A DNA stretch of 63,994 bases, counting the filler, from Jimgerdemannia flammicorona (taxonomy: Eukaryota), in assembly GCA_003990765.1 (NCBI GenBank). It is 3 parts of 3 records of this genome, joined end to end, with 100 filler letters (N's around TTAATTAATTAA, not from the genome) between each part and the next. Parts side by side here need not be neighbours in the genome. Positions count along the whole stretch, not along the records: positions 1 to 21,394 come from RBNJ01001464.1; 2 more parts are not named here. One strand, 5' to 3'. A model generated the notes under the pieces. The model was given only the letters and a program-made list of their open reading frames with translations, did no database searches and was not told the DNA's origin. Positions 630 through 37,893 of the stretch are shown here, in pieces; the first letter of the stretch is position 1; each line of letters starts with the position of its first letter. Made by a program: the position numbers and the translations under genes.

Positions 630-2125
630 TGTAAGAGGGTTACTTATTAGGGTAACCATTATGTAGTTCTGGAAGAGTTTTCTGGAAGTTCTGAATATTC
701 TAGAAGACTGTTTTCTTAAGGTCAAGATTAATTTCATATAGAATATATCCTTTATACTTATTGATTTCAAGATTAGATTGACATCTCAACCAAAGTTCTT
801 TTTTAGACTAGTTTTGAATATTCAGGATTTTCCATATTTTAGGAAGTTCAAGAAACTAAGACCAGCTTAGTTGAATTGGCATATCACTGCAGATAATACT
901 AAATTAGAAAATTTCATAATAGGGTTAGAAGTGAGATCTAATAGGAAGCAGATTTACTTAAGAGTAGTTTGTGGGTTATTAAATAGGTTTATTTACTATT
1001 TATGATATTGCTATACTAAGAATAGTTATGTAAAGAGATATTGTAGAAAAGTGTTCAGAAGTATTTTTATATATTTAAGTCTAAGATTCTGAGGTCTAGT
1101 GAAGGGAGTATTTATACTAGTGAGGGGTTATCTGAGCTAAACTAGATATGGATATAGTACTTAGTATCTTGCTTAGTCAGAATACAGTCATATAGTACAA
1201 GTGTGATCTAATATATCAAGAGATCATCTAACTGCTAAGTCAGTTCACAGTTATATTATACAAGGCTAATCTAACTATACTATGACTGCTAAGCTATCTA
1301 TAGATTTAGATATTATCTAGTTAGTCTTTGATAATATCACTATTGATGACATTATCTTTGGTAAAGTCTGAGCAGTTTTCTGACTTCTGACATCATCAGT
1401 TTCAAAGGTATCATCACTTCTATCTCTTGCAAAATTAAGACTATTCTTGGTAGTAGTGGTTATATAAGAATAACAGATCTTGATTCTCTTTTTTTTTTGA
1501 CTATTAGTATATTTGCGAGGACTGACCATCCTTATCTAGGGCAAGAGCTCTCAATGTCACAGCTGGGGGTTTGAACCTCTCAGAAATGATATTTTCTGTA
1601 ATCTGAGGCAATTTCTAGTAGTAATATCTGTTATATAGATAGGCTTGAGATTAGTTTTGACAATATTGACTTTCTTGAGTTCAGATGAAGCATTTATTAT
1701 TCTCTAATGGAGATGATACAGATAGAGCAAACAGGGTTATTCAAATGTGTTTTGCTTCTACTAAGTAATGAGGTCTTATATAGTTGTAATATATCTTAGT
1801 CTTAAGTTAATAAGTATAGTTTATGAATCTTTGATAGATGAGATAGGGTTCTTCTCATCTTAGTTTGAGTTTAGTACTTCAGTTTCATTTTATAATAGTA
1901 TAGTATATCAAAACTAGTTATAGAGGTTCAGAGTCAGTCTTATAGTTATAGTACTTCTTTTGGTATTCTTATATCTTAGTAATAGATTCTCATACTTGCT
2001 GGTATATTTTGTATACATAACTAGGTAATCTCTTTAGTAACTTGTTTTGTAGTCTCATATGTGATTTTCAAATTAGTTCTGAGGATGATATGCAATTTTG
2101 GTAGCTTAGAGATTGTGTACTTACA
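630..2125 (-). repeat. 3' LTR of copy A (LTR type 1, about 1.5 kb)
   Basis: TGTAAG...CTTACA termini, preceded on the minus strand by the PPT AAGAAGGGGAGAG (about 2127-2139). Inverted copy of 11726-13219. Confidence 0.92.
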
Positions 2126-2361: not shown

Positions 2362-2399
<38 letters not shown>

Positions 2400-2420
2400 G
2401 TTACTTGGACTCCGTCTTTA

Positions 2421-6115: not shown

Positions 6116-6145
6116 AATGAAATACGATTTGTTCTCAGTTGATCC

Positions 6146-11725: not shown

Positions 11726-13219
11726 TATAAGTGCACAACCTCCAAGCCACCAAAATCACATGTCATCCTCAGAACTAATTTGGAAACCACATGTGAGACT
11801 ACAAAATAAGTTACTGAAGAGATTATCTGGTTATACAAAATATGCCAGTAAGTATGAGAACCCACTACCAAGATACAAGAATACTAGAAGAAGTACTATA
11901 ACCATAAGACCAACTCTGAACTGCTATAACTAGTTTGGTATACTGTACTATTACAAAAGAAAACCAGAAGTACCAAACTCAAATTGAGATAAGAAGAACC
12001 CTATCTCATCTATCAAAAGGTTCACAAACTATACTTATCAAACTCAAGACCAAGATACACTATGACTATACAAGATATCATTACTTAGCAGAAGTAAAAC
12101 ACATTTAAACAACTCTGTTTGCTCTATCTATATCACCTCTGTTAGAGAGTAACAGACACTTCATCTGAACTCAAGAAAGCTGACATTGTTGAAACCAATC
12201 TCAAGCCATCCACGTGACAGATATTACTACTAGAAATTACCTCAGATTATAGAAAATATCATTTCCAAGAGGTTCAAATCTCCAGCCATAACATTAGGAG
12301 CCCTCATCCTAGACAAGAATGGCCAGTCCTCGCAAATACACCAGCAGACCAAAAAAAAAGAGAACCAACATCTGTTAACCTTGTGCAACTACCACAACCA
12401 AGAACAGTCTCAATCTTATAAGAGATAGAAGTGACAACACCTTGGAAACTGATGATGTCAGAAGTCAGAAAAATATTCAGACTTTGCTAGTAATGATGTC
12501 ATTAATAGTAATGTCATCAAAGACTAACCAGACAGCATCTAAACCTATAAATAGCTTAGCAGTCATAGTATAGTTAGATTAGCCTTATATAACATGACTG
12601 TGAACTGACTCAGTAGTCAGATGATCTCTTGATATGTCAGATCACACTTATACTACATAACTGTATTCTGACTCAGCAAGGCACTAAGTACTATATCTAT
12701 ATTTAGCATAGTCCAGATAGCCCCTCACTAGTATAAATACCCTCTCCCCCAGACCTCAGAATCTCAGACCTGAACAATCCAAACACACTTCTGAATACTT
12801 TTTCACAATATCCCTTTACAGAACTACTCCTAGTATAGCAATATCATGAATAGTGAATAAACCTATTTGATAACCCACAAACCACTCTTAAGTAAATCCG
12901 CTCCTCATTAGGTCCCACTCCTAACCCCATTACAAAATTTCCTAATTGGGTATTGTCTGCAGCGATATGCCGATTCAACTAAGCTGGTCTTAGTTTCTTG
13001 AACTTCCTGAAATATGGAAAATCCTGAACATCCAGAACTAGTCCAAAAAAGGACTTTGGTTGAGACATCAACCTAATCTTGAAATCAATAAGTATAGAGG
13101 ATATACTCCATATGAAATTGATCTTGACCTTAAGAAAATGGTCTTTCAGAACATCCAGAACTTCCAGAAAACCCTTCCAGAACTATGTAACAGTTACTCT
13201 AAAAAGTAACCCTCTTACA
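11726..13219 (+). repeat. 5' LTR of copy B (type 1)
   Basis: T(A)TAAG...CTTACA termini, TATA box GTATAAATACC at about 12731, AATAAA at about 12855, followed by a PBS. Confidence 0.9.
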
Positions 13220-13222
13220 ACT

Positions 13223-13234
13223 TGATAGCAGTGG
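13223..13234 (+). promoter_or_regulatory. Primer-binding site, probably initiator tRNA-Met
   Basis: TGATAGCAGTGG here and TGGTAGCAGCAG in copy C (28560-28571, minus) give a consensus TGGTAGCAGCGG. This is complementary to a CCA 3' end with an A1:U72 AGCAGCG acceptor stem, typical of initiator tRNA. Confidence 0.65.
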
Positions 13235-13259
13235 TTTACAATCTAATTCTGCTTCAAGA

Positions 13260-16200
13260 CACTTCCTCACCCTACTACAAAACTCCTCTGCGAATTTCTA
13301 TAAGTTGGTATAAAGCCCAACCTCTGAACTGGAATTTATCCTGAACCATCTAACAATCTAGAGAGAATTGAATCTGATATACAAGAACAATTTGACCTCC
13401 ACACCTGCAACAAGTGGAACAAATTTCATTTGAAGAAAGAAATACTTCAGTTAAATCAGCAAATAGGCAAAATCCTATTTACCGAACTCCTTGCTCTACA
13501 CTCAGCAAGTTAAGATGAAGAAGGTGTTATAGAAGTCTTCTTTACTCTTCTCAACAAGAGTTTTATCAGCTCTACAAATTCAAGTGATCTAGGACAACCA
13601 GCAGCAGTCTTTTTAGCCTTAGTCCCTCATGAAGCCCAAGTCTCTGTAGCCAAGTGGCTCAACTCTACTGACTTTCACCATACCTGAACCAAGACTGCAT
13701 TATACTACTGATTCTAGAACAGCAAGACCTGCTATATTCTTAAAGAAGAAGTAAGAGAAACCCTTCATCAACTATCTGACTCCGAACCAGAAGCAGGCCT
13801 AGCTATAGCTCTACCTGAACCAGAAACCAATATCAAACCAGAACTTGACTTTAAATTAAGTCCATCCGAAATCAGATATATAACTGATTCTGTCTACTTT
13901 GATGCTGAGCAAACCCAACTACATGAGGACCAAACTGAAGAGGAGGAGGAGTATCTCAGTGAATTTGATCCCAGATACACTACTGAAGGAGATGTACCTC
14001 TATCAGGACAAAATATACCAACACAGTAACAGACAGCTATTTACCAAGCCCTTACTCCAGACCCACAACTATTACTCCAGCAACTTACACAGACCCAAAG
14101 AACCCCATCACACTCTGCACCAGTACCTCAAGTAGTACCAGCAATACCACTACCAATAGTCCAACTGCTTCTAGTAAACAATATAGCAAACCAACAGATT
14201 CTAGATCTCACAGCTCAAGTAGCCATAATGGTAGCAACTATTACTGCCTTAGCTGAACAGACCTGACCTACTAAAAATCTAAGCCTACCTACCTTCAATG
14301 GTACTGTACAAGAAGTCCAAAGCTTCATTAGTATAGTTGATACCAACTTCGAAGCCAATCAAGACCAATGAGTGAGTTGCTGACTGCCTTCTGACAAACA
14401 ACCAAGACCACACTCTGGAACAACTCTTTGCTATCACTATAGCCTATGTCCACTGAGTTGTTACATTCTCCTGAGGACCTGCTGAAGAATAGTGGTGAAC
14501 CCTTTCTGAAAAACCCCTTACATGGGATACCTGATCTGCAGTAGTTACCCAGAATACAGCAAACAATGCCCCAGGATATGGAGCTCATCCTGCAGCCCCT
14601 GGACTCAAACAACTCATGATTGTCCAATATCATAGCAAAACCATGATTGCTGAATCTCAAGTAAAACTCTGCAACCTCAAATTTGATGTGTATGGCAAAG
14701 AAGAATTCAAAACCTTCTGTACAAAACTCGAGTTACTCCTGAACACTGTTGGCCTAGGATATATTGCCAATGATGAAGTATGAAATAGTACAAGAGCAGA
14801 CCATTTATTTGATGCTCTGCCTGAATGGCTTACTAGAAAAATCTATGAACAAGGCCGCTCAGTTAGTTGTGATCACCAACAATGGTATCTAGCAAGAATC
14901 AAGACTATGGTCAAGCAAATCCTAACAGCTGGACCAATTCTGCCCCAAAGACAATTCAACAATAAGAAAAAGACTTAGATCAAGAAAGAAGAACCCAAGT
15001 ATGAAGCATCCTGAACTCCCTCTACATCCATCTCATGGACACTCAGAAATCATGAACCCACCCGGCCAAGTACCTTCAAGAAATCACCAAAGGTGAAAGA
15101 AATGAATGTTGAAGAAGCAGAGCATACTTCTATTGCTGAAAGACAGGACATATGGCCAGTGCCTGCCCCAACCAAAAATCCTGAACAGTAACATGAGCAA
15201 CTATTACTACTCTGCACCACCTCAATAATATGACTACCAGAACACTAGATTTTGTCAAGCTAAGACAAACTGCCAAAGCCCCAACTAAAGGAAGTCAAAA
15301 AGTAGCTAGATATAACCTATATATAGGTGAAGAAGCTACAGTTTCCAACTGAGAAGTCAAGCAAGTCTATACAGAAATCAGTATCCAAATCCCTGAAGGA
15401 CATATTGGAAGAATATGCTGTTGCAGCAGCCTAGCATTAAAAGGACTCAGTAGAAGGAGGAGTTATTGATAAAGATTATATAGGCAAAATTATTGTCCTT
15501 ATCTAAAACTATAGTTAGATACCCTTCAAGATCCCCATAGGTTTCTGCATTGCTCAGATCCTATTCAAAAAAATTGAGTCAACTCTGATAGTCAAAGAAG
15601 TCCCTGAACTACTGCTTACCATCTGAGGATCCAAAGGATTTGACTCATCAAACAAAGCCCCAGCCCAATCTATCATGAACAAAGAAGAACAATTCTACAA
15701 GAAAATCGAAAATGGATATATACCAAGTGGCTGATGCCCCTATGGTATTAGAATGTACTCATCTCAAATAATTGATGATTGCTTCTTTTGTGTTAACGAA
15801 TTGGCTCAAAGAAGAACTAATAGAAGGAAAGCTCCTACAACTGAAATTACCACTATTGGATCAGACAAACTGCTTACACTCCAAGCTTTTGTCAACCAAG
15901 CATCTGTCAAGATTATGATAGACAACAGTGCCTCAGGCAACTTCATTAATGAAGAAACAGCCAACAGACTCAAGGTCTTCACCTCTCTGGTACAACAAAT
16001 CAAAGCAGTTGCTACAGCTGATGAAACCTCACATGTTATCAGCAAGGAAGTCTGCAACCTACCCTTCCGAATTAGTGACTACTGAGTACATGTTATCCTC
16101 CAAATTGTACTACTTCCTGACAATGAGATCATCCTTAGAACCCTATGGTTAAAACAAGAGAACCCTATGATTAATTGGGTAAACCACTCTCTGACCATCA

Positions 16201-19200
16201 AGAAAGGACACCACAACTTCAAACTACAAGGTGAAAAGGACCCACTTAGTCCTAGTGACCCTGGACCAAAGATCACTTACATCAACAAGTTACAACTTAA
16301 GAAATTAGCCAAGAAATGTCCTCTCTTTGCTATTGCCATCTGCCCATCCAAAGGAGAACCTGAGAACAATGAAGAAGACTTTTCCAAAGTTGACAGCCAT
16401 GTCAGACCACTACTCCAGAAATTCTGAGATATATTCCCAAAGAAACTTCCAAAAGGTCTATCCCCCAAACAAGCAGTAGACCATGCCATCAAGACTATTC
16501 CAGATGTGAAGCCAGCCTTCAAGTCAATCTACCACATATTGCCAAGAGAAATCAATACACTCAAGAAAGAAATTGACAAACTCCTAGAACAAGGATTCAT
16601 CAGACCCAGTGTATCACCTTATGGTACACTAGTCCTCTTTGTTGTTAAGAAAGGAGGAGACTTGCAAATATGTATTGATTACTGTAACCTTAACGAACAG
16701 ACCATCAAGAACTATTGCCCACTACCTAGAATCGATGAAATATTTGATAGGCTTACCAATTCACAATTCATGAGCTCTTTCAACCTGTGAAATAGCTATT
16801 AGCAAATTGCCATGAAAGAAGAATACATCTACAAGACAGCCTTCTGAACTCGCTATGGATACTTTGAGTTCCTGGTTATGCCTTTTGGCTTAACCAATGC
16901 TCCTACAACCTTTTAGACACTGATGAACACCATCCTGCACTCATACCTAGACAAATTTGTTGTTGTCTACATTGATGACATTCTAGTCTTCAGCAAAACC
17001 CTGGAGGAACATCTTGAACACCTCGAGCTAATACTATTGAAACTCCAAGAAAACCAACTCTTTGCAAAACTTAGCAAGTGTGAATTTCTCCTAAAGGAAA
17101 TTCAATTCCTTAGACATATTATTACACCCAATGGAATCAAAGTGGACCCAAGAAAAATCTCCACAATCAAGGATTGGCCCAGACCCAAGAAGCTGAAGAA
17201 CCTTTAGTCATTCCTGGAATTAGCAAATTATTATAGATGATTTGTTGCCAACTTTACCAAAATTGCTACCACCCTTACTCAAATGACCAAGTACAGCAAG
17301 AAAGAAGAATAGCTCTGGACCATGAAATAAGAAAAAGACTTCAACAATCTTGCAAATTAGGAACCTGAATAAGATACAGTCTTTCAAGCACTAAAAGATG
17401 CCTTGATAACCACTCCAGTGCTTCAAGTGACAAATTCTGCCCTGCCATATGAAGTTACTACTGATGCCTCTGACCTAGCTCTTGAAGCAGTGCTCATGCA
17501 AGAAGGACACTCTGTGGCCTATCATTCCCATAAGTTCAATGATGCTGAAATCAACTATGCAACTCACAAAAAGAAAATATTAGCCATCATAGACACTCTG
17601 ATCAAATGGTGACCATATCTAAAAGGAGCACACTTCACTATATTGACTGACTACAAGTTATTAGTCAACATCAAGACACAGGCTACTCTTTCTCGAAAGC
17701 AAGCCAGATAGATGAAAGTCCTCACCAACTTTGACTATGAAATCCAGTATTGCTCTTGCAAGGAAAACATTATTGCTAATGCAATATCTAGACCACCAAT
17801 CAAAGAAGTTATCCAAACTCTCACCTTGGTTATCAATACTATTATAGAACAAATTATTACAGCATATGCTGATGATAAGGAAGCTCAAGCACTCCGAGAA
17901 ATTCTGAATAGTAGCAATGCTGATAAGTATACCTGGTACCATCAATACCAACTCAAGAACAATGCTATCTACTACAAGGACAGACTATATGTCCCAAACA
18001 ACTGAGACCTCCAAAGGACTATCTTATTTGAATATCATAATGCTCCTACAGCTGGACATTTAGGATTTGACAAATGCTATGAAGTTATCTTCCAAAACTT
18101 CTATTGGCCCCGCATGGTAGATCAGCTAAAGACCTACATCACTTTCTGTGATGCCTGCCAATGGAACAAGTCCTCAATACTTGCAAAACCTGGTTTACTT
18201 TACCCTATCCCAGTACCATCCACTAATTGGGAACAAATCTCTATAGACTTCATTGTATAACTACTCTGAACTAAGAACAGAAAAGATGCAATTATTGTCT
18301 TCATGGACTATCTTAATAAACAAGCTCACTTTGTGTCTACTACTACTACTGCAACAGCTCCAGACATAGCTACACTCTTGTTCGATAACATCTTCCACTA
18401 TCATGGTCTTCCTAAGACCATTATTAGTGACCAGGATCTGAAGTTCACCAGCCATTTTTGAAAAGCCCTCCATAGATACCTTGAAATGAAACTTATACTA
18501 TCTACAGCCTTTCACCCTAAAACTGATGGCCAAACTAAAAGAATGAACTGAACTCTGGAACAAATGCTAAGAAACTATGTTTCCTACAGATAAGATGATT
18601 GGCATGAACACCTCACTATAGTCGAGTTTACCTATAACAATAACAAGTAAGCCTCTCTTAGAATGACCCCATTTTTCGCCAACACTGGACAAAACCCAAA
18701 CGCCCCTTTGATACTTATCCAAACTACTGAAGAACACTCCACAGTCAAAGCTGTTGAAGAATTCTTACTCTGAATGTGTAATCTAAGCCAGATCACAATT
18801 GAGAATTTATCATAAGCTCAAGAATAACAGTCACAGTATGTTAACCAATACTGCTAAGAAGAAATCTTTAACATTGGAGAAAAAGTTCTATTGGACATCC
18901 AAGGATACTGAGTTGACAACCTCAAGTACAGACTATCTACAAAGCTGAACAGCAAGTTCATTGGACCATTTGAAGTCATTGCACAAGTCTCTCCTACTTC
19001 CTACAAATTGGCTCTACCAGACACTATTAGGGTCCACCCAGTCTTTAATGTCCAACATCTCAAGCAATATAATGAAAATGATGATAAGCTATTTCCAAAC
19101 TGGACCACTGAACCACCTGTACCTGTTATAATTAATAATCAAGAAGAATATGAAGTTGAACAAATTCTCAACAAATATGGCAACAAGAACTACCCTGAGT

Positions 19201-19310
19201 ACCTTGTTAAATGGAAAGGTTACCCAATCTATGATACAACATGGGAACCCAAGACCAATCTTCAGAATATTACTGACTTAGTTCAGGAATATGATTCCTT
19301 GAACAACTAA
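13260..19310 (+). pseudogene. gag-pol polyprotein of copy B, with a roughly 300-codon N-terminal extension before the capsid-like region
   Basis: Long reading frame broken mainly by TGA/TAA/TAG transitions and a few small indels; ends after the chromodomain at 19310. Confidence 0.88.
15270..15650 (+). pseudogene. dUTPase domain of copy B (between gag and protease)
   Basis: Decayed versions of all five trimeric dUTPase motifs (AGYDL, GRIxxRSS, GVIDxDYxGxI, RIAQ, RGSKGFGS). Homolog in copy C at about 26135-26500 (minus). Confidence 0.9.
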
Positions 19311-19736
19311 AACCTATCTGATACCTATTAGTATATACTATATATTACCCTCCTGAATATTATAATTATCATGAGCAAAAAATCAAAAACTCAGCAAGTT
19401 AAGACAAAGAATACCAACTCTCTGAAAAAATAACAAAACTGAAAGCAAGTCTATTCTCCCTATACTACTGGTGGGAAAGAAGGCATAGACATTTAAGAAG
19501 ATTCCTTAGAGGAAATTCTCCAACAGTGAATGACATCAGAATCACTTCTGGCACATGATATTGAATACATGACCCTTTAATGTGTGAATCCAATGTGTTA
19601 GGCAACTGTACTATGAGCATGCTACTTTTTGAGAAAAATAGACTTCACCAGACTTTTGACCTTCCAAATAGTGTAATAATGCTAGAACAAATTAGAAGGT
19701 TCTGATGAGGATATCAAAAGCTAAGAAGGGGAGAGT

Positions 19737-21039
19737 TGAAAGCACACAACCTCTAAGCCACCAAAATTACACATCACCCTCTGAACAAGCCACCAAAATC
19801 ACATGCAACCTCTGAACAAATCTGGAAATTACCTGCTTAGTTATGAAGTTGAGTTAAACCAAAGTCACAGTGCACAAAGCTGAGTCAATACAAAGTCACA
19901 GAATATAAGATTTATATAAATGAAATCTTATCAATCAGGACCAAATACATATATACTGAATACCGAGATATGTCGAACAGAGAACTAAAACAAACAATAA
20001 CTACAACTTCTGAATATATACAAACATGACCACTGAGATCTACAATCACATCCATGCTGACATTTAGAATACCATTGTCAACTAAGCTACACCCCCTCTG
20101 TCTCTTATAAATATCCATAGTCTAGCACCCTTCTACTTTGTGGAAGCCCAATGGAATGTCCTGAACATGCTTAGTAAGGCTAACCAAATCAGACAAATCT
20201 CAAGCTACTATCAGATTGGCTGTCTCCTGGAAGATATAGTCGAATACTACTACAATATAGACATTACTCAGATGTCTCAACACTAGAAACTCATTGCCTG
20301 TAAACACCAAGAACTCTTCTATAATTATAGTACCTTTATTCTCTGCCTCCAAGTTACTACTATCAAAATGGTTGCTATCCTGTCCTAGAGTCAAATTGAC
20401 AACATGATACAAGAACTCAACCACAAGTACCTCGAGTACATTCAGACCACAGACAGAACCTTCCCATACCCCGACAACCATATTCTGCAAATGTCTCAAG
20501 TCAGATACACTATGAAAGATGTCTATAATATAATCTGGTTCGATGAAGATAAAGCAAAAGACAATGATCCCTCTGATGCTGATATGACCTCCAGCCAAGA
20601 ATCTCTGCCAACTTTGATCACTCCGCCAACATTATCAATAAACTTGTAACAGTTTATAATCACCTACAAGACCTATTAGAATAATGACCACTGGTACAAA
20701 TACCAACCTATATTCACCCCTGATTACTTCAACTATAATGAAGAGACTAGAGAACACAACCTATACCTCCAGACAACTCTTGAGATTGAATCAACCACTT
20801 CACCACCTGAGTATGAGTAACATGAACCACAGCCACCAGCTTACTACAACCCTATGACTCATAGTGCTGTAACCTATAGAAGGTATATAGACAGTGAATC
20901 CGATGAAAGTGAAGATGACACACCTCTTCTCTATCTACCAACACCTTATCCAACATATGAGACAGATGATGCTATCCTGTGTGACAGTGATGAAGTCCCA
21001 ATGTATTATTACCTCAGTGAATAAGGAGAAGTAATCCAA
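19737..21039 (+). repeat. 3' LTR of copy B (type 2), truncated by a LINE insertion
   Basis: Follows the PPT at 19723-19735. Matches the LTRs of copy C, and beyond the first ~50 bp does not match B's own 5' LTR. Confidence 0.88.
20026..21024 (+). pseudogene. LTR(U3)-encoded ORF of unknown function, about 330 codons
   Basis: Single frame from ATG 20026 with no frameshift, broken only by transition-type stops that mostly differ in position from those in the copy-C homolog. Confidence 0.8.
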
Positions 21040-21394
21040 CACCTTTCTCCTGTACAATTCACGTTACACAAACCTTCAAGCAACAGTTCTCGACACAACT
21101 AGGAGTAAAGGTACTAGCAATATGTCTTCAAGCAAGAGTTCCGACGGGCGTACTGGGTCGGGGGGAGCTGGGGCTTTCGGCTGGCAGCAAGTGGGGAGGG
21201 GTTATGGCCTGGGGATGGGGGCCTTTGGAGGGTCGAACGGTGGTGAGGGCTCTCGAGGAGGACTGGTGACAGGTGGTGGTGGTGGAAAGGCTGGTCCCTC
21301 GAGTTTTGCTGACAAGGTGAAGGGGAGTGGATGGCCTGCTGGAGACAGGGCTGGTGCTGCTGTGGGGAAGGGCAAGGCGAGCCTTGGGAGGGGG
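21040..21394 (+). mobile_element. 5' end of a second, younger LINE (5' UTR + start of ORF1 at 21122), cut by the contig end
   Basis: 5' terminus CACCTTTCTCCTGTACAATTCACGTTACACAA resembles the 5' end of the first LINE; Gly-rich ORF1 with SFADKVKG; CpGs retained. Confidence 0.85.
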
Positions 21395-21494
21395 NNNNNN
21401 NNNNNNNNNNNNNNNNNNNNNNNNNNNNNNNNNNNNNNTTAATTAATTAANNNNNNNNNNNNNNNNNNNNNNNNNNNNNNNNNNNNNNNNNNNN
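21395..21494. other. Artificial contig linker N44-TTAATTAATTAA-N44
   Basis: Six-frame stop palindrome between N runs; an identical linker is at 42887-42986. Confidence 0.97.
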
Positions 21495-21770
21495 GACAAA
21501 GTCCAAATGACTCATTTATTACTTAGCCACCCTCTCATAGCTAGCAAACTTGTATAAATAACCCAGTATCTTCAAGTGAATAAACCTCAGATCGAAATAG
21601 TTCAAAGCAAAGAGATAGCAAAGGAACTAGTAAGCCTGCGGGCAGATACACTTCGAACTCACCCACCCTCCCCTGCAACTTCAAGAAGACTCTGCGAGAG
21701 TCAGAACAGTCAAGTTTTCAAGATACAGAAATCCGACGTACTTTCAAGAGTAAGCATCCGCTACGTTACA
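21495..21770 (+). mobile_element. 3' part of an LTR from another family (F), inserted into the 3' LTR of copy C
   Basis: TATAAATA at about 21553, AATAAA at about 21579, ends in GTTACA exactly where the type-2 LTR sequence resumes. Confidence 0.7.
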
Positions 21771-24700
21771 ATATGTTCAAGAGTTGTAATTGTTTGTTTA
21801 TTGTAATTCTCCATTTCAACACATCTAGATACTTGGTATATATGTATTCAGTTCTGATTGGTAAGGTTCTATTTGTGTAAATCTTATGTTCTGTAACTTC
21901 AAGTTGACTTAGCTTTGTACTCTGTAACTTTAGTTTAACTTAGCTTCATGATCTTGTATGTAATTTTCAGATTTATTCTGAGAGTGATATATGATTTTGA
22001 TGGCTTAGAAGTTGTGTACTTATAACTCTCTCCTTCTTAGCTTTCAATATCCTTGTTGAGGTCTTCTAATTTTGGTCTAGTGTTGTTATACTATTTAGAT
22101 AGTCAAAAGTTCAGTAACATTTATTTTTCTCAGAAAGTGGCATACTTATAGTATAGTTGTCTAATGTATTGAATTTATATATTAAAGAGTTGTATGTTCA
22201 ATACTATGTATATACCAGAAGTAATTCTGATGTCATTCAATGCTAGAGAATTTTCTCTAAGAAATTTTTTTAAATATCTATGCTTCATTTCCCATCAATA
22301 GTATGGGGAGAATAGACTGACTTTCAGTTTTGCTATTTTTCTAGAGAGTTGGTATTCTTTGTTTTATCTTGCTGAGTTCTTGATTTTGTTTGTGATAATT
22401 ATAAGGATACTTAATGTTCAGGAGTAGTAGTATATAGTATAGACTGATAGATACTGGAGTTTTTAGGTTTCAGTTATTCAAAGAATCATATTCTTGAACT
22501 AGATCAGTGATATTCTGAAGGTTGGTCTTAGGTTCCTATATTGTATCATAGATTAGATAATCTTTCTATTTGACAAGGTATTCTAGATGATTCTTATGGC
22601 CATATTTATTGAAGATTTGTTTAACTTTATATTCTTTCTAATCATTAATAATAACAGATGCAGGTGGTTCTATAGTTTAGTTCAGAAATAGCTCATCATC
22701 ATTTTTATTGTATTATTTGAGATATTGAATATTGAAGACTAAGTGAATCTTAATGATATCTGGTAGTATCAATTTGTAAGAAGTTGGAGAGACTTGTACA
22801 ATGACTTTGAATGGTCTAATGAATTTGCTTTTTAGCTTCATAGATGGTCTGTGCTTGAGGTTATCAACTCAGTATCCTTGGATATCTAGTAGGACTTTTT
22901 CTCCAATATTGAAAGTTTCTTCTCAGCAGTATTGATTGATATACTGTGACTGCTGTTCTTAAGCTTGAGATAAATTCTCAATTGCAATCTGGCTTAAGTT
23001 GTATATTCAGAGTAGAAATTCTTTAATAGCTTTAATAGTAGAGAGTTCATTAGTAGTTCAGATAAGTATCAGAGAGATGTTTAGGTTTTGTCCAGTATTG
23101 GTGAATAATAGAGTCATTCTAAGAGAGGCTTGCTTACTGTTATTGTAGGCAAACTCAACTGTGATAAGATATTCATGCCAATTATCTTATCTATAAGAAA
23201 TATAGTTCCTTAGTATTTATTTCAGAGTTTAGTTCATTCTTTCTATTTGACCATCAGTTTCAGGAGTAAAAGACTGTGGATAGTGCAAGTTTCATTCTAA
23301 GATAGATATGGAGAGCTTTCCAAAAGTAACTAGTAAACTTTGGATCTCAGCTATTAATAATGATCTTTGGAAGACCATAATAGTAGAAGATGTTATCAAA
23401 CAAAAGTATGGCTATATCTAGTACTGTGACAGTAGTAGTAGTTAGTATAAAATGAACCTATTTGCTGAGATAGTCTATAAAGACAATAATTGCATATTTC
23501 TCATTCTTGGTTCAGGATAGTTATATAATAAAGTCTATAGAGATTTGTTTCTAATTAGTAGATGGTACTGAGATAGGGTGGAGTAGACTAGGTTTTGTTA
23601 GTGTTAAGAACTTGTTGTATTGGCAGATATCATAGGAAGTAATATAAGTCTTTAGCTGATCTGCTATATAGAGCCAATAGAAGTTTTGAGAGATAACTTT
23701 ATAACATTTGTCAAATTCTAAATATCTGGCTATAGGAGTATCATGATATTCAAATAGGATAGTCCTTCAGAGATCTTGATTATTAGGAATATACAATCGG
23801 TCTTTGTAGTAGATGGCATTATTCTTCAGTTGGTATTGATGATACCAGGAGTACTTATCAATATCCTTACTACTCAGAATTTCTTAGAGTACTTAGGCTT
23901 CTTTATTATTAGTACATACTGCAATAATTTATTCTATGATAAAGTTAGTAATCAAGATGAGAGTTTAAATAACTTCTTCAATTAGTGGTCTGGAAATTAC
24001 ATCAGTAACAATATTCTCCTTACTAGAACAATACTGGATTTTATAGTTAAAATTAGTGAGAACTTTCATCTATTGACTTACTTTCAAGAAAGGATAGTCT
24101 GGGTCTTAATATTGACTAATGATTTGTAGTCTGTCAGTACTGTGAAGTATACTTCTTTAAGATAGAGTTACTATTTGAACAGAGTGTCTATGATGGCTAA
24201 TATTTCCTTCTCATGGGTTATATAGTTGATTTTAGTATCATTGAACTTATGAGAATGATAGACCACAGAGTATCCTTCTTATATATGCACTACTCCAAAA
24301 GCTAGATCAGAGACATCAGTGGTAACTTCATATGAGAGGGCAGGGTTTGCTGCTTAAAGTACTAGAGTGGTTATCAAGGCATCCTTCAGAGCTTGAAAGA
24401 CTATATCTTGTTTAGATTCCCAATTTACAAGATTGTTGAAGTCTTTTTCTTGCTTTATAGTCTGAGGCTATTCTTCTTTTTTACTATACTTGGTCATTTA
24501 GGTGAGAGCAGTAGTGATTTTGACAAAGTTTATAACAAATCATCAGTAATAGTTTGTTAGTCCCAGGAATGACTGGAGGTCTTTCAGCTTTTTAAATCTA
24601 GACCAATTCTTGATTGTAGAGATTTTGCTGTGGTCCACTTTAATTTCATTAGAAGTAATAATGTATCTAAGAAATTGAATTTCCTTCAGAAGAAATTCAC

Positions 24701-27700: not shown

Positions 27701-30448
27701 ATGTAAGTTACTAGAGTAACTGTTATAGATCTGAAGTAAGAGCTTAATAGATAACTGTTTGTTACTATATAGGTGTATTTTGTCCTAATAGAGATATGTA
27801 TATCTCCTTTAGTAGTATATCTCAGATTGAATTTACTGAGATACTCCTCCTCTTCTTTACTTTGGTCCCCATATAGTTGGGTTTATTCAGCATCAAAGTA
27901 GATAGTATCAGTTATATATCAGATTTTAGATGAGCTTAATTTGAAAGCTGGTTCAGGTTCAGTATTAGTTTCAGTTTCAGATAGAGCTATAGCCAGGCCT
28001 GCTTCTGGTTCAGAGTCAGATTATTGATGAAGGGTTTCTCTTACTTCTTCTTTAAGAATATGGCAGGCCTTGCAATTCTGGAATTGGTAGTATAAGGCAG
28101 TCTTGGTCCTGGTGCAGTAATAGTTAATAGAGTTGAGCCACTCAGCTATAGAGATTTGAGCTTTATGAGAAACTAAGGCTAGAAAGACAGCTGCTGGTTG
28201 TCCTAGGTCACTCAGATATATAGAGCTAATAAAACTCTTGTTGATAAGAGTAAAGAAGACTTCTATAAGACCTTCTTTATCTTGACTTACAGGGTATAGA
28301 GTAAGGAGTTCAGTATATAAGATTTCACCTATTTGCAGATTTAATTAGAATACTTCTTTTTATAGATGAAGTCTATCCCACTTATTATAGGTATAGAGGT
28401 CAAATTGTCCTTGTACATTATATTCAATTCTCTTCAGATTGTCAGATGGTTCAGAATAAATTCTAGTTCAGAGGTTGGGCTTTATACTAACTTGTAGGAA
28501 TTCTTATAGAGGTTTGTAATAAGGTGAGAAAGTATCTTAAAGCAGAATAGAATTGTAAACTGCTGCTACCAAGTTGTAAGAGAGTTATTTTGTTAGAGTA
28601 CTATTACATAGTTCTGGAAGAGTTTTCTGGAAGTTCTAGATATTCTGGAAGACTATTTTCTTAAGATCAAGATCAATTTTATATAGAGTGTATTCTCTAT
28701 ACTTATTGATTTCAAGATTGAGTTAATGTCTCAACCAAAGTCCTTTTTTGGACTTATTCTGGATGTTCAGGATTTTCTATATTTTAGAAAGTTCAAGAAA
28801 CTAAGACCAGCTTAGTTGAATTGACATATTGCTATAGACAATATTTAATTAGAAAATTTTATAATATAGTTAGGAGTGAGACCTAATAGAGTTCAGATTT
28901 ATTTAAGAGTGATTTATGGATTATTAAATAGGTTTATTCACTATTTATGATATTACTATACTAGAAGTAGTGGTGTAAAGAAATATTGTGGGAAAGTGTT
29001 CAGAAGTTCTTATATATTCAGATTGTTCAAGTCTGAGTTTCTGAGGTCTAGAAGAGAGGGTATTTATACTAATAGAAGGCTATCTGAACTATACTAAATA
29101 TGGATATAGTACTTAGTATCTTACTGAGTCAGAATGCAGTTACATATATAGTATAAGTGTAAACTAATATATTAAGAGATTGTCTGACTACTGAGTCAGT
29201 ATATAGTTATGTCATACAAGACTAATTTAACTATATTAATGACTGCTAAGATATCTATAGATTTAAATACTGTCTAGGTAGTCTTCAATAATATCATCTT
29301 TGCTTTCATCAGATTTGCTGTCTGCATACCTTCTATAGGTAATAGTACTATGAGTTACTGGATTATAGTAAGCTAATAGCTATTCTTTATATTGCTTATA
29401 CTCAGATAGTAGAGTTTTCAGTTCAATCTCAAGAGTTGTCTAGAGATATAGATTGTGTTTTCTGGTCTTTTCATTGTAGTTGAAGTAGTCAGACATAAAT
29501 GTGAGTTGGTACTCATACCAGTGGTCATTATTCCAATAGGTCTCATAGGTGGTTATAAACTATTGTAAGTTTATCAGCAAGGTTAGTGGGGTGATCAGAA
29601 CTGGCAGAGATCCTTAGCTAGAGGTCATATTGGTATTAGAGGGATTGTTATCTTCTACTTTATTATTATCAAACTAGATTATATTGTAGATATCTTTTAT
29701 GATATATCTGACTTGAGATATTTATAGGATATAGTTATTGAGGTATGGGAAGGTTCTGTCTATGGTCTGAACATATTTAATATACTTGTAGTTGAGTTCT
29801 TGTATCATATCATTGATTTGGCTATAGGATAGAGTAGCAACTATTTCAGCAGTAGTAACTCAGAGATGGGAAATAAAGGTGTTATACTTATAGAAGAGTT
29901 CTTGATATTTGCAGGTGATGAGTTTTTGGTATTGAGATATCTGGATAATATCTGTGTTATAGTAGTATTTAACTATATCTTCTAGAAGGCAGCTAATCTG
30001 ATAGTAGCTTGAGATTTGTCTGATTTAATAGACTTTGCTGAACATATTCAAGGCATTTCATTAGGCTTCTACAAAGTAAAGAGATACCAGGCTATAGATA
30101 TTTATGGGAGGCAGGAGAGGTGTGGCTCAGTTGATAATAACATTCCAAATATTAATACAGATGCAGTTGTAGATCTCAGTGGCTATAGTTGTATATATGT
30201 TTAAGAGTTATAATTGTTTGTTTGTTGTAGTTCTCTATTTTGACATATTTGGATACTTGGTATATATATATTTAGTTCTGATTAGTAAGGTTCTGTTTGT
30301 GTAAATCTTCTGTTCTGTGACTTCAAGTTGACTCAGCTTTGTGCTCTATAACTTCAGTTTGACTCAGCTTCATGATCTTGTATGTAATTTTCAGATTTGC
30401 TCTAAGAGTGATATGTGATTTCAGTGACTTAGAGATTGTATATTTATA
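21771..30448 (-). mobile_element. Ty3/gypsy chromovirus copy C (same family as A and B), inserted into element D
   Basis: Colinear with B across gag-dUTPase-PR-RT-RH-IN-chromo. 5' LTR 28575-30448, PBS 28560-28571, PPT about 22026-22038, partial 3' LTR 21771-22024. Confidence 0.94.
28575..30448 (-). repeat. 5' LTR of copy C (type 2, about 1.87 kb), containing the U3 ORF homolog at 30186-29263
   Basis: Termini T(A)TAA(A)...CTTACA. The last ~700 bp match the type-1 LTRs; the U3 matches the 3' LTR of B. Confidence 0.9.
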
Positions 30449-33400
30449 TTGCTTAATGATACCAGCTTCTTTCAATTCCTTGAGTTCTGCTTGCAACTAT
30501 TCTCTATAGGCAGGTGATATGGGTCTGGCTTTCTGATAGATAGGCTTGATATTACTAGTATCAACTTCATAGTAGTACTTGGGTTCTTGGTTGTGGATAT
30601 TCCTGAAGTCTGTGGTGAGTACTCCTTCATTCTGGTATAGAATCTTGAGAAGTTATTCTTCTAGAGAAAAGTTTTCTCTAATAGTATATGTGTACTTATT
30701 CTAGTTCTTGTCTTTCTTATACTTAAGTTTAGTAATCTTGGTAGCAGTATAGGCTCCTCTTCCAGTAGATCCAAAGTCTTGTTTTTCTCTCTTAGTCTTG
30801 ATGAGTTCAATAGCTTCAGTAATCTTAGACTTCTTAACTTCATGGATCAGCATCTGGCCAATCCTATCATACTTCTTAACTTTTAATAGAGTGGTGGGGT
30901 TGTGATTCCTAACTATAGGAAAGATCTCACCAGTATAATCAGAATCAATGACTCTTCCTTCAACTGAGATTTTACTCTTAACTAGACTGCTCCTAGTCTT
31001 GATAATTCCAGTATAATTCTTTGGTAATATGACTCCAATTTCAGTATCAAGTAGAGTGGTGGTTTGTAGTTCAAGGATAGCATCTTGGATATTGACAAGG
31101 TCTATTTCTATAGCTCCTTCAGTCTTATATTCTGAGATCTTAACTTTAGGGTGAAACTTCTTAACCTTGAGAGTGATGTCTGATTCTTGTTCTTTCTCAT
31201 CATCACTATCAGCTTGAAGCTCTGGGGGCTGGTCATCTTCTTCAGCTTTCTTTTTTGCTTCAGCTACTTCTTGCTTGCACTTTTGTTAGTAGATTTTTCT
31301 AACTTTACTAATATAGGACTAGCAGTCATTTAGGTGTTCAGAGCAGTATATCTTAGTACTATGAGGGTATCTTTCTTGAGGAGTATAGCTATCAATAATT
31401 TTGTTGTACCACTGCTCATCTGTAAGCTTAGTTGTCTTACTCTTATTCTTATACACTGAGTGCATAAAGACTTCTGTGTCCTCTTCATATTATTTCTCCA
31501 TATCTGATAGTACTCCTTTGTAGATATTGATATAGTGACTCATATCTTTCTTTCTCTATAGTTAATCTGCATCTTCTGGACATTGAGGTTAATGATAGCT
31601 TTGATCTTATGAAGTCATTGATTACTAATGAGGATATCATAGTTAGTGGTACTTATAATGATCACATCTACTAAGATAGTAGCTCCTCTAATCTTGATGA
31701 GAACTTCTTGGATCTTACCTAGTGGGGTAGCTTATGTACCATCTGCTGTGATATAGACAATTCTAGTAGATTCTTCAATATTCCAGCCCAAGTAGTCAAT
31801 TGCCTTCTTACTTATAAGATATCCTCCAGTACTAATATTAATGATAGTATCAAAGATACAATCTTCAATCTGGTATTGGGTATAGGCTGAGGTCTTGTAC
31901 TGATCTTCAGATTCTTTATCTGAGTCTTCTTGTTCATCTTTTTGTACATTGTGAGCTTCTATGATCTTGTACTCTTAGTTTTTGACAGTGGTTGCAAGTT
32001 CTGCTCTCAACTACTGTCTAAAGGTGGGGACTTCTGCTAGTTGTCCAAAAGTAGCATTGATCTTCTGTTTCTTGAGATCTTTATAGATATCATACTGATA
32101 GACTTTGGTCTTATACAGCTTCTGTTCTTTCTTACTTTCACTTTCTCCTGGAACTGGAGTAGTACTTTCAATAATTTGACAGATAGCTTTATCTAACTCC
32201 ATATCTTGATCAATCTCCTCAAGTTGGGTCTTACTTTGAATAGTGATGGTTGGGGTCTTTTTTGGTCTTCCAACTGACTTACTGTTATTCTTCTTGTCAT
32301 AGGGCTTAGACCAGGTTCTGGTATCTTCAGTAATAGGGTAGAATTCAGACTCCTCATAGTATTCTTCATTATCAGTATCACCAATCTTCTTGATGACTAC
32401 TGTATTGGTTTGTTCTCTGGTTTTGATAGTATTACTTAGTTGGACTCTGTGTCTTGTTTTGGTCATACAATTCTTTGCATAGTGGTCTTCTTCTCTATAT
32501 TTGAAGTATATAATGATATATTTCTCTATAGTACATAGCTACAAACTTCTGTACTGATCTCCTATTGGTACTTTGTACTTCTCTAACAACGTCACTAAGA
32601 TATATAGTCATCTTGACAAACTGCTGGGTGAGTTCCTCCACTGGATTAGCTTTGGCCATCTTTGGAATAGGTGGAGATGGTTGTTTGTTGAGAGCTGTAG
32701 TGGGTATGATACTGGTTGGCTTTGGTGGCTCTATCTTGATACCAGTTATCCTTTTCATTGAGTATTTAGTAGAGTGTCTGACAGTCCAATATCTCTGTAC
32801 AAAGACCACTTTCTAATCAAGAGTCAGAGTAGCTAAGATAGATCAGATTATTAGGGTGATTTCATAGTAGACTCTTTTTAGGAAGGTTAAATTAGCTATC
32901 TATTCCTTGAGAGTATCATCATAGCTAGCCAAGATAATCTGGTAGCAGATTTGAATATAGAATAAGTTGGAGTCTTCATTGAGTCCTTGGCAGATATATA
33001 GTATTGAGTTGATCTTTAAGAGCTTACTTGATCTCTTCAGTATAATATATAGTTCTGAGGAAGTTCTTCATGTTGGTAAGTTTGACTGTACTATTGTCAG
33101 CAATAGTGGCTGTATTGAACTTATCTCTAGCAAGTCCTCTGAGGCTGACAGATAGAAGGATCAATTGTATTTCAATACTAAGAGCTTATATGGTGACAAA
33201 TTGTTCAAAGTCTTCAATGAAGATCAAGATTGACTCTTCAGTAGTAAATCTATAGAATATGGAGAGACACATTTCTATCTTATCTTGAATTCTTATAGAG
33301 GGTGACTCTTATAGTCAGAGTAGTTGTTGTAGTGATTATTTGTTATTTAGCTTGAAAGTGAGGAATCCTAATGATATTACTAGTTAATAAGTACCAAGTT

Positions 33401-35004
33401 GTTACATAGTAGATGTTAAGTTCTTCAAGTATATCAGATTCTCTTTAAGATATATCTCTTAGACTAACCATAAGTTTCTTATAAGCAAGTTCTATTGGAG
33501 TACCTTTCTAAGGTCTTATAGTCTTTAAACTTCTTATCTTTAAACTATTTTATTATTTCTTAAATTTGCTTGCATGAAATTGAGTAGAGAACTAGAACTT
33601 TTGTACTCTTGAGTAGTTGGATATTTAAATGTTTGAGTGTTTTAATACTGACTTTATTTCAAAGGAAATAAGAGGGGTATTTATATAAAATATAATTCAA
33701 TAGTTACTAAGATATAAAGCTAAATATAAAATCCAATAACTAAATAAGATATTTGAATACAGAAAACTTCAGGTTATAAGTATAAATTTGAGTATCCATA
33801 TAATTGGTTGCATAAGATCAGAATGCTGAAATAATTTCTAATAGTTATATGAGGTCAGGATACCAGAATATTCAAGTGTTCAAATAAATAGTTACACAAA
33901 TAAATTAGAGTAGAATATTCAGAATCCTGGGGGCTTTGTCTTCATTGCTATCATTATGGCTAGAGGTCAGAGACAAGATGTCTTTGAAGGAAATAAGATC
34001 AGTAAATATTTCTATTTCATTTGTTTTATATATATCAATTAGTAGGATAATGTTATTACTAGTAATATTATCATATTCAATGGTAGCAGAAAGGAGATCA
34101 TGGACTCTCTAATCTATGACATTTTCCTCTACAAAGTAGAGAACAAAGATGAGATCTTGAGAGAGTCTGACCTAAATACTGGGGTCTTGGAATACTGAGA
34201 TTAATCTTATAAAGAATTGATCTGAATTGTCCTCAAGAATGAGATTCTAGAACTCTTCTATCTCATCACTTTTGAGAGTAATAGTAGATTGGACTTCTAT
34301 GGCCACCATGACTTCTAATATATCTGTATAGTGGACTGATAATTTCTTAAAGTCTGAGACTCTGATATACTCTAAGTTAGGGATTGACCAAGATATATAT
34401 CTGAAGACCTGATAGATCTTTTTAGCTATTCTCAATTTGCATACATCTATAGAGGTGGCATCTTGTATCTCTTGGAGACTGGCCTGAGAGAATTCCTGGC
34501 AGAGGAGGTTTCTTATTTCATATTCCTACTATATTCAGAGGTATTCAGTAACAGTAGTAATTCTTATCTCTATTTCATGACAGTAGAGAGTAAAGTGGTA
34601 AGAGTCACCAGTACCCAAGTTAAGGCTAGGAATCCTTCTGGTATAGGTTCTTATAGCTCTTCTGATGTCTTGGAATATCCTTTCTTGGACTGAGAAGCCT
34701 TAGTGATTCCTAGATCTTGAGGTTTGGCAAGTGGCAGGCATTTTGTTTATAGTGAGTCTTTTGAACTATTTCAAGATTTTGTGAGTCTTGTTTGAATTGC
34801 TACTGCTACAGTTTTTTGGTCCTTCTTTTATATTCCTTGAGATATCTATCTTGTAGTCATCATGACTTATGGTTGGTCATTATTGCTCATCTTGTAGCCT
34901 GGGTGAGTCATGCCATATAATCTTCTTGTGCTCTGATCTGATGACTTATAAGGAAAGGCTATCTCCTGTGATGATGTCACCATTCTGAGATCACTATTAT
35001 AATA
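30449..35004 (-). mobile_element. Ty3/gypsy element D, 5' half: LTR-gag(CCHC)-protease-dUTPase-start of RT region
   Basis: LTR about 33400-35004 (ends GTAACA, then TGGT PBS start). Decayed zinc knuckle about 32470-32515, aspartic protease about 31600-31870, dUTPase about 30760-31170 (TRSSL, VIDSDYTGEI, DRIGQM, DFGSTG). Confidence 0.88.
33905..34741 (-). pseudogene. LTR(U3)-encoded ORF of element D, about 280 codons
   Basis: Continuous frame from ATG 34741 that includes track ORF 34247-34435; lies upstream of the TATA (about 33680) and AATAAA (about 33655) inside the LTR. Confidence 0.7.
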
Positions 35005-35511
35005 TATATATCTTTTCCTTTCCACAATTGTAAATATCTGCAACTTCATATCTATCATCATTACACACTATTGTCTTTGCTGTGCATGGCTTGCAATTAA
35101 TTGCAATTGGTATGATAATTGAGTAAGTACATATACAAAGAGCAGTGATGTACATATAGTGCATTCTACAGACATTTTGCTGTTATTCTGTAAGCATTCC
35201 CAACGACTCATTATGATACGCGCATTCTCGCAATCTGGGCTGGCATTCACAGGTGCAATCTGATTCTGGCTGCATTCCGATACTGCACGTTCTACGAACG
35301 CGTAAGAATGCGGGTCAGAATGCCGAAATTTTTTTGTGATGTAAATGAGAGCAAAAATTGGAACTAGGATCCTACGTGTTGAAAGATGAAAAAATAAACA
35401 CAGTAGCTTTCTATCAGATGCCTAAAAGGGATATATTCATAAAATATGTGTGAATCAGCTAAGAAATGAATGAAGGGGGGTTATATTCACAAAGAGAAAG
35501 GGATGCAAAAA

Positions 35512-37747: not shown

Positions 37748-37790
<43 letters not shown>

Positions 37791-37893
37791 TAGCTTACTC
37801 TAGCAGAGGATATATTCATAAATAGGTTTCAATCAGCTAAGAAATAAATAAAGGGAGCTTGTATATATTCACGAAGAGGAGGAGAGAAAAAAA

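Follow-up and report, generated by a model that had tools for sequence, protein, structure and literature searches.

The window analysed here, a stretch of 63,994 nucleotides of the fungus Jimgerdemannia flammicorona (GenBank assembly GCA_003990765.1), harbors decayed copies of a Ty3/gypsy chromovirus, called A, B and C below. The long terminal repeat (LTR) of B and C very probably contains a real gene, the copies of which in the window are all dead through C>T/G>A hypermutation. The best overall explanation, which we hold with moderate confidence, is that this LTR carries a complete extra gene, presumably for an accessory or regulatory protein, and that the LTR of a different family, element D, very probably does so as well. 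The open reading frames (ORFs) of B and C are located as follows.

20026..21024, plus strand: ORF in the LTR of B, with ATG, 332 codons and 7 internal stops
29263..30186, minus strand: ORF in the LTR of C, with the start codon mutated to ATA and 11 internal stops

The elements were mapped by self-comparison of the window and with Pfam; no element copy in the window retains both ends.

630-2368 and 8242-11724, minus strand: A, a chromovirus copy divided by a GC-rich insert of 5.9 kb that resembles a long interspersed nuclear element (LINE)
11726 to ca. 21065, plus strand: B, a copy of the A/B/C chromovirus
30448 down to 21771, minus strand: C, a copy of the A/B/C chromovirus, inserted into D at the start of the reverse transcriptase (RT)
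35170 down to 30481, minus strand: D, a family different from A/B/C

Three contigs make up the window, with N44-TTAATTAATTAA-N44 linkers between them (21395-21494 and 42887-42986). Contig ends cut features that seem to cross these linkers, which are the end of the LTR of B and the stub of the 3′ LTR of C.

Coding potential of the LTR reading frame

The frame of the B ORF is interrupted by 7 stops, while the two remaining sense frames have 16 and 39; for C the numbers are 11 as compared to 22 and 38. Among 1000 dinucleotide-preserving shuffles there was none in which any of the six frames was as open as B or C, and five control segments from LTR parts outside the ORF gave shuffle fractions of 0.26-0.83. 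The stop density of the B ORF (7 per 332 codons) equals that of the pol frame of the same element (14 per ca. 667). B and C can be aligned without indels from 20026 to 20918, and 6 of the 7 stops in B and 10 of the 11 in C can be derived by a single C>T/G>A step from sense codons present in two intact relatives. With 16 of 18 stops explained by this type of mutation, the proposal made in the preliminary description of this DNA, that B and C keep one frame inherited from an open ancestor, is borne out.

A hidden Markov model (HMM) built from B and C was searched against 1,835,955,588 representative proteins and gave exactly two matches, P0001 and P0002, both metagenomic and free of stops. P0002 (128 amino acids, E value 1.5e-55) begins with MTTEIYN at the ATG of B, whereas P0001 (247 amino acids, E value 7e-79) spans residue 115 to the end and closes with ...EYPDSI, matching the C terminus ...DYLDSI*. 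The stop of B at 21022-21024 is a mutation, P0001 continuing for ca. 33 residues beyond it, and the C ORF has lost ca. 57 codons near the C-terminus by deletion. Judged from these sequences, the intact ancestral protein would have had ca. 361 amino acids. If C>T/G>A differences are allowed for, identity amounts to 121 of 128 positions between B and P0002 and 166 of 214 between B and P0001. Since P0001 has diverged to this extent and yet has 247 open codons, it argues for selection on coding capacity.

Other searches added no relatives. A homologue search with the B ORF found none and also missed P0001, and is therefore insensitive for hypermutated queries; a homologue search with P0001 returned P0001 itself only, and metagenome contigs queried with the alignment and with P0002 contained no confirmed related locus. 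The earlier suggestion that the protein resembles a family expanded in arbuscular mycorrhizal fungi is not supported by the profile search, which found 2 of 1,835,955,588 proteins, both of them metagenome fragments.

It is scarcely credible that the open frames are not genes but a by-product of the skewed, T-poor sense strand of the LTR. An A-rich and T-poor sense strand does lower the number of stops, the in-phase antisense frame of B and C is equally poor in stops (8 and 12, respectively; its translation is rich in V, I, F and L), and the corresponding region of the short LTR type described below has frames with only 10-17 stops, which are nevertheless insignificant. However, shuffling never reproduced the openness of B and C and did so for D once in 1000 cases, while the five control segments were unremarkable. 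Moreover, the two metagenomic gene calls match the sense frame without stops (E values of 1e-55 and 1e-79), and the stops map onto sense codons by the mutation type of the window itself. The sense strand was chosen because both database proteins match the sense frame.

Element type, LTR limits and position of the ORF

One dUTPase-bearing Ty3/gypsy chromovirus (Metaviridae) gave rise to A, B and C, all of them hypermutated, and the polyprotein region of B is organised as follows:

14301..19400, plus strand: gag-pol of B, with dUTPase, protease, RT, RNase H, integrase, Tf2-type SH3 and chromodomain in this order (Pfam)

The Pfam E values for B are 1e-4 (RVP_2), 4e-24 (RVT_1), 2e-24 (RT_RNaseH), 4e-16 (Integrase_H2C2), 9e-4 (rve, which fails the cut-off), 3e-16 (SH3_Tf2-1) and 4e-13 (Chromo), and the dUTPase domain upstream of the protease matches PF00692 with an E value of 8e-10. 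In both B and C, more than 1 kb (13223-14300) separates the primer binding site (PBS) from the first recognisable gag-like sequence. The LTRs and their landmarks are the following.

630..2125, minus strand: 3′ LTR of A, type 1, 1496 bp; homology to B ends at the LTR end
11726..13219, plus strand: 5′ LTR of B, type 1 (short), 1494 bp
19737..21065, plus strand: 3′ LTR of B, type 2 (long), truncated; opens with TGAAAG and adjoins the polypurine tract (PPT) at 19723-19735
28575..30448, minus strand: 5′ LTR of C, type 2, 1874 bp; ends with CTCTTACA at 28575; lies within the RT start of D
21771..22024, minus strand: stub of the 3′ LTR of C, comprising the first ca. 254 nt of type 2, followed by unrelated sequence to the contig end
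28567..28577, minus strand: ACA/ACT/TGGTA junction of LTR end, spacer and PBS in C; the B equivalent is at 13217-13227 (plus strand)
29055..29068, minus strand: TATAAATACCCTCT box of the 5′ LTR of C; the same box is found at 12732-12745 (plus strand) in the 5′ LTR of B

The LTR of B and C opens with TGTAAG, or a mutated form of it, directly after the PPT AAGAAGGGGAGAG (19723-19735 in B) and terminates with CTCTTACA, giving the terminal inverted repeat TGTAAG...CTTACA. It is followed by ACT and then by TGGTAGCAG..., which is read as the PBS. This PBS-like TGGTAGCAG is located 3 nt past the LTR end in both B and C and presumably fits initiator tRNA-Met; a search of the window for tRNA genes found none. 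In a comparison of the 3′ LTR of A with the 5′ LTR of B, the match ends exactly at the terminal CA, at the same base. An LTR end at CACACTTATAC was considered and rejected, as the TATA box, AATAAA and the PBS lie further downstream.

Within these limits the ORF starts 290 nt (B) or 263 nt (C) into the LTR, and in C its stop precedes the LTR end by 688 nt. The C ORF thus covers LTR positions 263-1186 of 1874; the TATAAATACCC box follows its stop after 195 nt, the TATA box being at position 1381, and AATAAA is found ca. 125 nt beyond the TATAAATACCCTCT box. Because it is upstream of the TATA box, the ORF is placed by these motifs in the presumed U3, in sense orientation. It lies within the LTR, unlike the additional ORFs (aORFs) of internal regions, which are found between the LTRs. 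LTR lengths of 1494 bp (B 5′), 1496 bp (A 3′) and 1874 bp (C 5′), with the ORF of B and C inside the LTR, confirm an earlier statement that these repeats measure 1.5-1.9 kb and contain an ORF upstream of the TATA box. Beyond 20918-21065 the B and C copies no longer match, as the 5′ end of a second LINE-like element cuts the 3′ LTR of B near 21053-21070. The contig joins, this cut near 21060 and the loss of ca. 57 codons from the C ORF had been overlooked in the preliminary description.

The LTRs fall into two types. Type 2, which is long and carries the ORF, comprises the 5′ LTR of C, the 3′ LTR of B and the 254-nt stub of the 3′ LTR of C; type 1, which is short, comprises the 3′ LTR of A and the 5′ LTR of B. 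The first ca. 90 nt and the last ca. 700 nt are common to both. Type 1 retains the last ca. 25 codons of the ORF, with PDSI* at 12542, and has ca. 700 nt of unrelated sequence without coding signal in place of the ORF body. This region was rejected as a further ORF carrier (shuffle fractions of 0.10-0.79); it showed no amino acid similarity to the type 2 ORF in 18 tests (z from -1.7 to 1.3) and only short chance matches at the nucleotide level.

The two LTRs of B are discordant, the one at the 5′ end being short and without ORF body and the one at the 3′ end long and ORF-bearing. Such a pair is impossible from one retrotransposition but would result if copies had recombined or if the assembly were chimeric here. 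In addition, the 3′ LTR of B contains a 31-nt tandem duplication at ca. 19757-19818 (…CCACCAAAAT.ACA…CTCTGAACA…), which none of the other four LTR copies has.

The two LTR types bear on the possibility that the ORF is a passenger, i.e. a gene or gene fragment captured by the ancestor of the element and without role in its life cycle. Type 1 LTRs lacking the ORF body on otherwise similar copies are in agreement with this, and gene capture by LTR retrotransposons is described in a passage of a review on plant elements (PMC7264820). We nevertheless consider a passenger unlikely. Neither the 1.84 billion representative proteins nor Pfam contains a cellular homolog, a diverged relative (78-80% identity after correction) keeps 247 codons open, and a second family, D, has an ORF at the same place. 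Furthermore, type 1 keeps the last ca. 25 codons and looks derived by loss of the ORF rather than ancestral.

Predicted properties of the encoded protein

AlphaFold2 models were calculated from three-row alignments. For P0002 with B and C (residues 1-128) four helices were predicted with a pLDDT of 44.1, and for P0001 with B and C (residues 115-361) the pLDDT was 31.0 and nothing reliable was obtained. The N-terminal part of ca. 130-170 residues is probably helical according to these models. By its composition the remainder appears to form an extended and strongly acidic tail with many proline, tyrosine and aromatic residues: P0001 has a calculated pI of 4.05, with 46 D+E versus 10 K+R, 24 prolines and 23 tyrosines, and in its last 37 residues, which include bulky hydrophobic ones, the net charge is -11. 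A composition of acidic and bulky hydrophobic residues is typical of acidic activation domains. The protein had been described as all-helical, a term that does not suit a chain of which only the first 128 residues are predicted to be helical (pLDDT 44) and the rest is acidic and rich in proline and tyrosine (pLDDT 31).

An ORF in the putative LTR of a second family

Element D, into which C is inserted, has an ORF in a similar position.

33400..35170, minus strand: putative 5′ LTR of D, 1771 bp; opens with TGTAGAATG and ends with ...TGTAACA, then ACT TGGTA
33905..34741, minus strand: ORF in the LTR of D, with ATG at LTR position 430, 278 codons and 7 internal stops
33685-33672, minus strand: TATAAATACCCCTC box of D, 220 nt downstream of the ORF stop
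30481..33396, minus strand: internal region of D, with leader/gag, a weak protease match, dUTPase and the RT start, cut by the C insertion

Only 1 of 1000 dinucleotide shuffles was as open as the D ORF. The D LTR was taken to start at 35170, where the CpG-rich 3′ flank of a BTB-SPRY gene copy ends and DNA without CpG begins. Its end was set at 33400 because the 11-mer ACAACTTGGTA is found only at the junctions of B, C and D. With at most one mismatch this 11-mer has three matches in the window, and 15 of 100 shuffles give at least three; as shuffles reach this number so often, it is the positions of the 11-mer and not its count that support the D LTR end. The layout of D repeats that of B and C: a few hundred nt, the ORF, ca. 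200 nt, the TATAAATACCC box and the junction ACA ACT TGGTA. It is likely that the D ORF, too, was once a real gene inside its LTR.

On sequence grounds D is a family distinct from B and C. The order of the Pol domains differs, with dUTPase before protease in B (15453-15651 and 15864-16212) and protease before dUTPase in D (ca. 31815-31563 and 31141-30760). The RVP_2 match of D is weak (E value 0.0024, which fails the cut-off) and D is truncated before the RT, while its dUTPase, located after the protease, is recognised with E values of 1e-19 and 2.8e-19. The dUTPase domains of B and D align weakly (Smith-Waterman score 84, z 10), and in the same comparison the gag regions of B and D gave no clear alignment.

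Observations against a coding LTR

Besides the open antisense frame, several observations weigh against a functional gene in these LTRs. Counted by codon position, the differences between B and C are ambiguous: transversions at the three codon positions number 3/2/8 (p 0.09), and transitions number 69/39/82, a distribution confounded by base composition. The relatives found in a very large library are only two, each of them incomplete and encoded on a contig of 998 or 1180 bp. A search for sequencing runs that contain 29000-38900 listed none. TATA box, poly(A) signal, U3/R limits and PBS are all read from motifs, and the limits of the D LTR are taken from a single LTR copy, no intact relative of D being on record here. 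Because type 1 LTRs occur without ORF body, the ORF is dispensable in cis for the existence of a copy. None of B, C, P0001 and P0002 reached the threshold of any Pfam family, a sequence search of the PDB with the profile gave no matches at E values up to 10, and in the ESM Atlas P0002 reached a recognition of 2273, below the mark of 2300, with unspecific matches sharing fewer than 170 features. Both structural models are of low confidence, so neither the fold nor the function draws support from them.

Relationship of the B/C, D and E reading frames

The preliminary description had placed ORFs in the U3 of three LTR retrotransposon families, the third being called E, and had assigned their products to one shared protein family because two blocks of residues aligned by eye. 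The location in the presumed U3 holds for B/C and, with an LTR deduced from one copy, probably for D; for E it does not, as no feature of an LTR element is found there. The proposed kinship of the proteins was not recovered by any method. Comparison of a four-sequence B/C profile with D and with the two parts of E (E1 and E2) by hhalign gave probabilities of 0.17%, 0.19% and 0.31%, and 13 Smith-Waterman tests across families (300 shuffles each) gave z values from -1.7 to 2.7, whereas the positive controls reached 124 with B against C and 80 with B against P0001. The lowest shuffle fraction, that of D versus E1, was 0.013 without correction for the 13 tests. A hypermutation-aware alignment, in which D codons may revert C>T/G>A changes, gave z values of 0.2 and 0.8; applied to B, this method yields scores of 636 and 930. 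The blocks seen by eye are chance resemblance.

E consists of two overlapping open stretches in different frames and was examined as an ORF carrier in its own right.

58941..59634, minus strand: E, with open stretches at 59634-59173 (E1) and 59258-58941 (E2)

It was rejected as a single ORF, since the two blocks of the earlier alignment lie in different frames (frameshift); as a significantly open frame, since its openness is matched by 199 of 1000 shuffles; and as transposon DNA, since its observed/expected (o/e) CpG ratio of 0.93-1.0 compares to 0-0.17 in every transposon stretch, even in the GC-rich LINE-like element, which looks young. E has no repeat partner in the window and no PBS junction, and tblastn with the gag-pol of B and the frames of the LINE-like element found nothing on its contig. 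None of the 42 ORFs scanned there (from 50 of at least 90 amino acids) matches a retroelement Pfam domain; the clear Pfam matches on this contig are ankyrin repeats. A homologue search with E1 (searched at lengths of 84-268 amino acids) found none, and in the ESM Atlas E1 had a recognition of 2012, below the mark of 2300, with unspecific matches. TATAAATAC and CTCTTACA occur downstream of E and are taken as chance occurrences because no TGG-type PBS follows. A short way downstream of E, in the same orientation, comes a 547-codon ORF that matches Sel1 weakly and has ankyrin repeats after it. E is no part of the LTR ORF feature and has the appearance of ordinary unique DNA.

At the neighbouring Sel1/ankyrin locus (56300-58706, minus strand) several ankyrin repeats follow in other frames and form tandem DNA repeats of ca. 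100 nt (56291-57068); the shifts of frame point to introns, to a pseudogene or to indels of the assembly.

One ancient accessory family shared by the LTR retrotransposons B/C, D and E is very improbable. B/C and D do have the same LTR layout (an ORF of 280-360 codons, ca. 200 nt, the TATAAATACCC box and the junction), both families carry a dUTPase, and a fast-evolving accessory protein could drift beyond detection. However, no similarity emerged with hhalign, Smith-Waterman or hypermutation-aware alignment, E is CpG-normal, frameshifted and without homologue or retroelement domain, and the Pol domain order of B and D differs. The B/C and D ORFs alone may have a common origin, since even the dUTPase domains align weakly; as far as the sequences allow a judgement, the B/C and D proteins are best described as positional analogues.

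Mutational state and other features of the window

In bins of 1 kb the CpG o/e ratio is two-state with sharp borders: it is 0-0.17 at 1-21100, 21495-35170, ca. 45200-47000 and ca. 50000-52300, and ca. 0.8-1.4 elsewhere. All transposon stretches of the window have values of 0-0.17, and the ratio marks transposon DNA better than GC content does. The internal regions of B and C differ by 1207 transitions versus 158 transversions, and of 910 C/T differences with scorable 3′ neighbour, 540 are in CpA context. TpA/ApT is ca. 0.9-1.1, and the strongest mark of decay is CpG loss, which includes the GC-rich LINE-like element. These data suggest methylation-linked CpG loss together with CpA>TpA changes like those of repeat-induced point mutation, the two being inseparable here.

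The LINE-like element is present twice.

2369-8241, minus strand: LINE-like element, ca. 50% GC, with RVT_1 at 3815-4267 and a 3′ A/T run at 2364-2396; splits A
21053-21394, plus strand: 5′ end of a second LINE-like copy with Gly-rich N-terminus; truncates the 3′ LTR of B and reaches the contig end

The second copy shares 36% amino acid identity over 119 residues with the 5′ end of the insert in A, and the CpG o/e ratio of the LINE-like element is 0.02-0.12 despite its high GC content.

Two further CpG-free, AT-rich blocks, at 45.1-47.1 kb and 49.9-52.4 kb, are presumably old repeats; they have neither similarity to A-D nor an open frame. Tandem BTB and SPRY paralogues, ca. 80% identical, are encoded on the minus strand at 35429-36913 and 37808-39386. 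The D insertion site lies ca. 260 nt beyond the aligned part of the first copy, and a long T run (ca. 37743-37789) is located in the 3′ flank of the second.

Comparison with known systems

Genes in the U3 are known from retroviruses, examples being sag of mouse mammary tumour virus (MMTV), nef of human and simian immunodeficiency viruses (HIV/SIV) and tas/bel-bet of foamy viruses. Similar to nef, sag and tas, the LTR ORF described here is a sense ORF in or overlapping the U3, located after pol and the PPT and duplicated into both LTRs, with a length of 280-360 codons. An acidic C-terminal region is also known from foamy virus Tas. Unlike the retroviral U3 genes, the ORF is hosted by an env-less Ty3/gypsy chromovirus, lies in the LTR as a whole and has no Pfam or PDB match; accordingly, Pfam and PDB sequence searches revealed no membership in the nef, sag or tas protein families.

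Among retrotransposons, the aORFs of plant LTR elements are described in passages of the review by Vicient and Casacuberta (2020, PMC7264820) as being of unknown function, conserved in most copies of a family and without database similarity, with a regulatory role proposed. According to these passages they occupy the internal region, mostly between pol and the 3′ LTR, in sense or antisense orientation, and some are upstream of gag. The B/C ORF differs from the aORFs so described by its location inside the LTR (PMC7264820). In fungi, the brtn gene of the Botrytis element Boty/BcGypsy1 (Zhao et al. 2011, as referred to in PMC8365987) is likewise an extra ORF of a Ty3/gypsy element that was not called by genome annotation; by the title of that work it is antisense, whereas the B/C ORF is sense.

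dUTPase-bearing fungal chromoviruses include PosPlaTy3 of Postia placenta, an element of Phanerochaete and Tmt1 of Tuber, and the position of the dUTPase in Pol is variable according to a section of Novikova et al. (2010, PMC2864245); such elements are also mentioned in part of PMC6431247. The elements of the window are similar in being chromodomain Gypsy elements with a dUTPase domain within Gag-Pol in both B and D, at a position that varies as in the section cited (before the protease in B and after it in D). The legend of Figure 3 in PMC2864245 mentions, for some fungal elements, an 'add. ORF' without known function, and the section cited does not speak of ORFs embedded in LTRs. Accessory proteins of LTR retrotransposons also include CERV of the Caenorhabditis elegans element Cer1, which in the part of PMC10309623 consulted is connected to retrovirus-like nuclear export of genomic RNA; host and element are different from those described here. 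In the literature searched, judged by titles and the opening parts of abstracts, no ORF inside a retrotransposon LTR was described.

Proposed role and implications

The protein would be an element-encoded accessory or regulatory protein, encoded in the sense strand of the U3. As the ORF is located in sense orientation in the LTR, its sequence is transferred together with the U3 from the RNA 3′ terminus to the two LTRs, and the gene would thus travel with the element and land in both repeats. It may be read from a spliced or internally initiated RNA that spans the 3′ U3, or alternatively from a start site in the first ca. 260-290 nt of any LTR. The acidic and hydrophobic C-terminus would fit a transcriptional activator or a chromatin-directed factor acting on the LTR of the element itself; a regulatory, activator or anti-silencing role, proposed from composition, is tentative and on balance doubtful. 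The short LTR form fits both a trans-acting product and a dispensable passenger.

A more far-reaching proposal is that the LTR of some fungal chromoviruses would be a self-contained cassette of promoter, ORF of ca. 360 codons, TATA box, R and poly(A) signal, encoding an acidic activator or anti-silencing factor that switches on the LTRs of the family, with B/C and D each carrying, at this one position in the U3, a version that evolves fast or was acquired independently. We regard it as speculative and rather improbable. If true, each LTR, even a solo one, would represent a trans-acting factor in mobile form, which would amount to a Tas/Tax-like circuit outside the retroviruses.

Extra genes of LTR retrotransposons are usually sought between the LTRs, and LTRs are treated as non-coding and masked before gene calling. 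In the elements described here a gene-sized ORF, demonstrably coding in relatives that are alive, fills about half of an LTR of 1.9 kb, which would explain the length of some fungal LTRs. The ORF points to retroelement accessory proteins as a class that annotation pipelines overlook systematically, just two fragments having been found among 1.84 billion proteins, and to a retrotransposon counterpart of the genes that complex retroviruses have in their U3. Should the protein regulate its own LTR or counteract silencing, it would bear on the escape of transposons from fungal genome defence.

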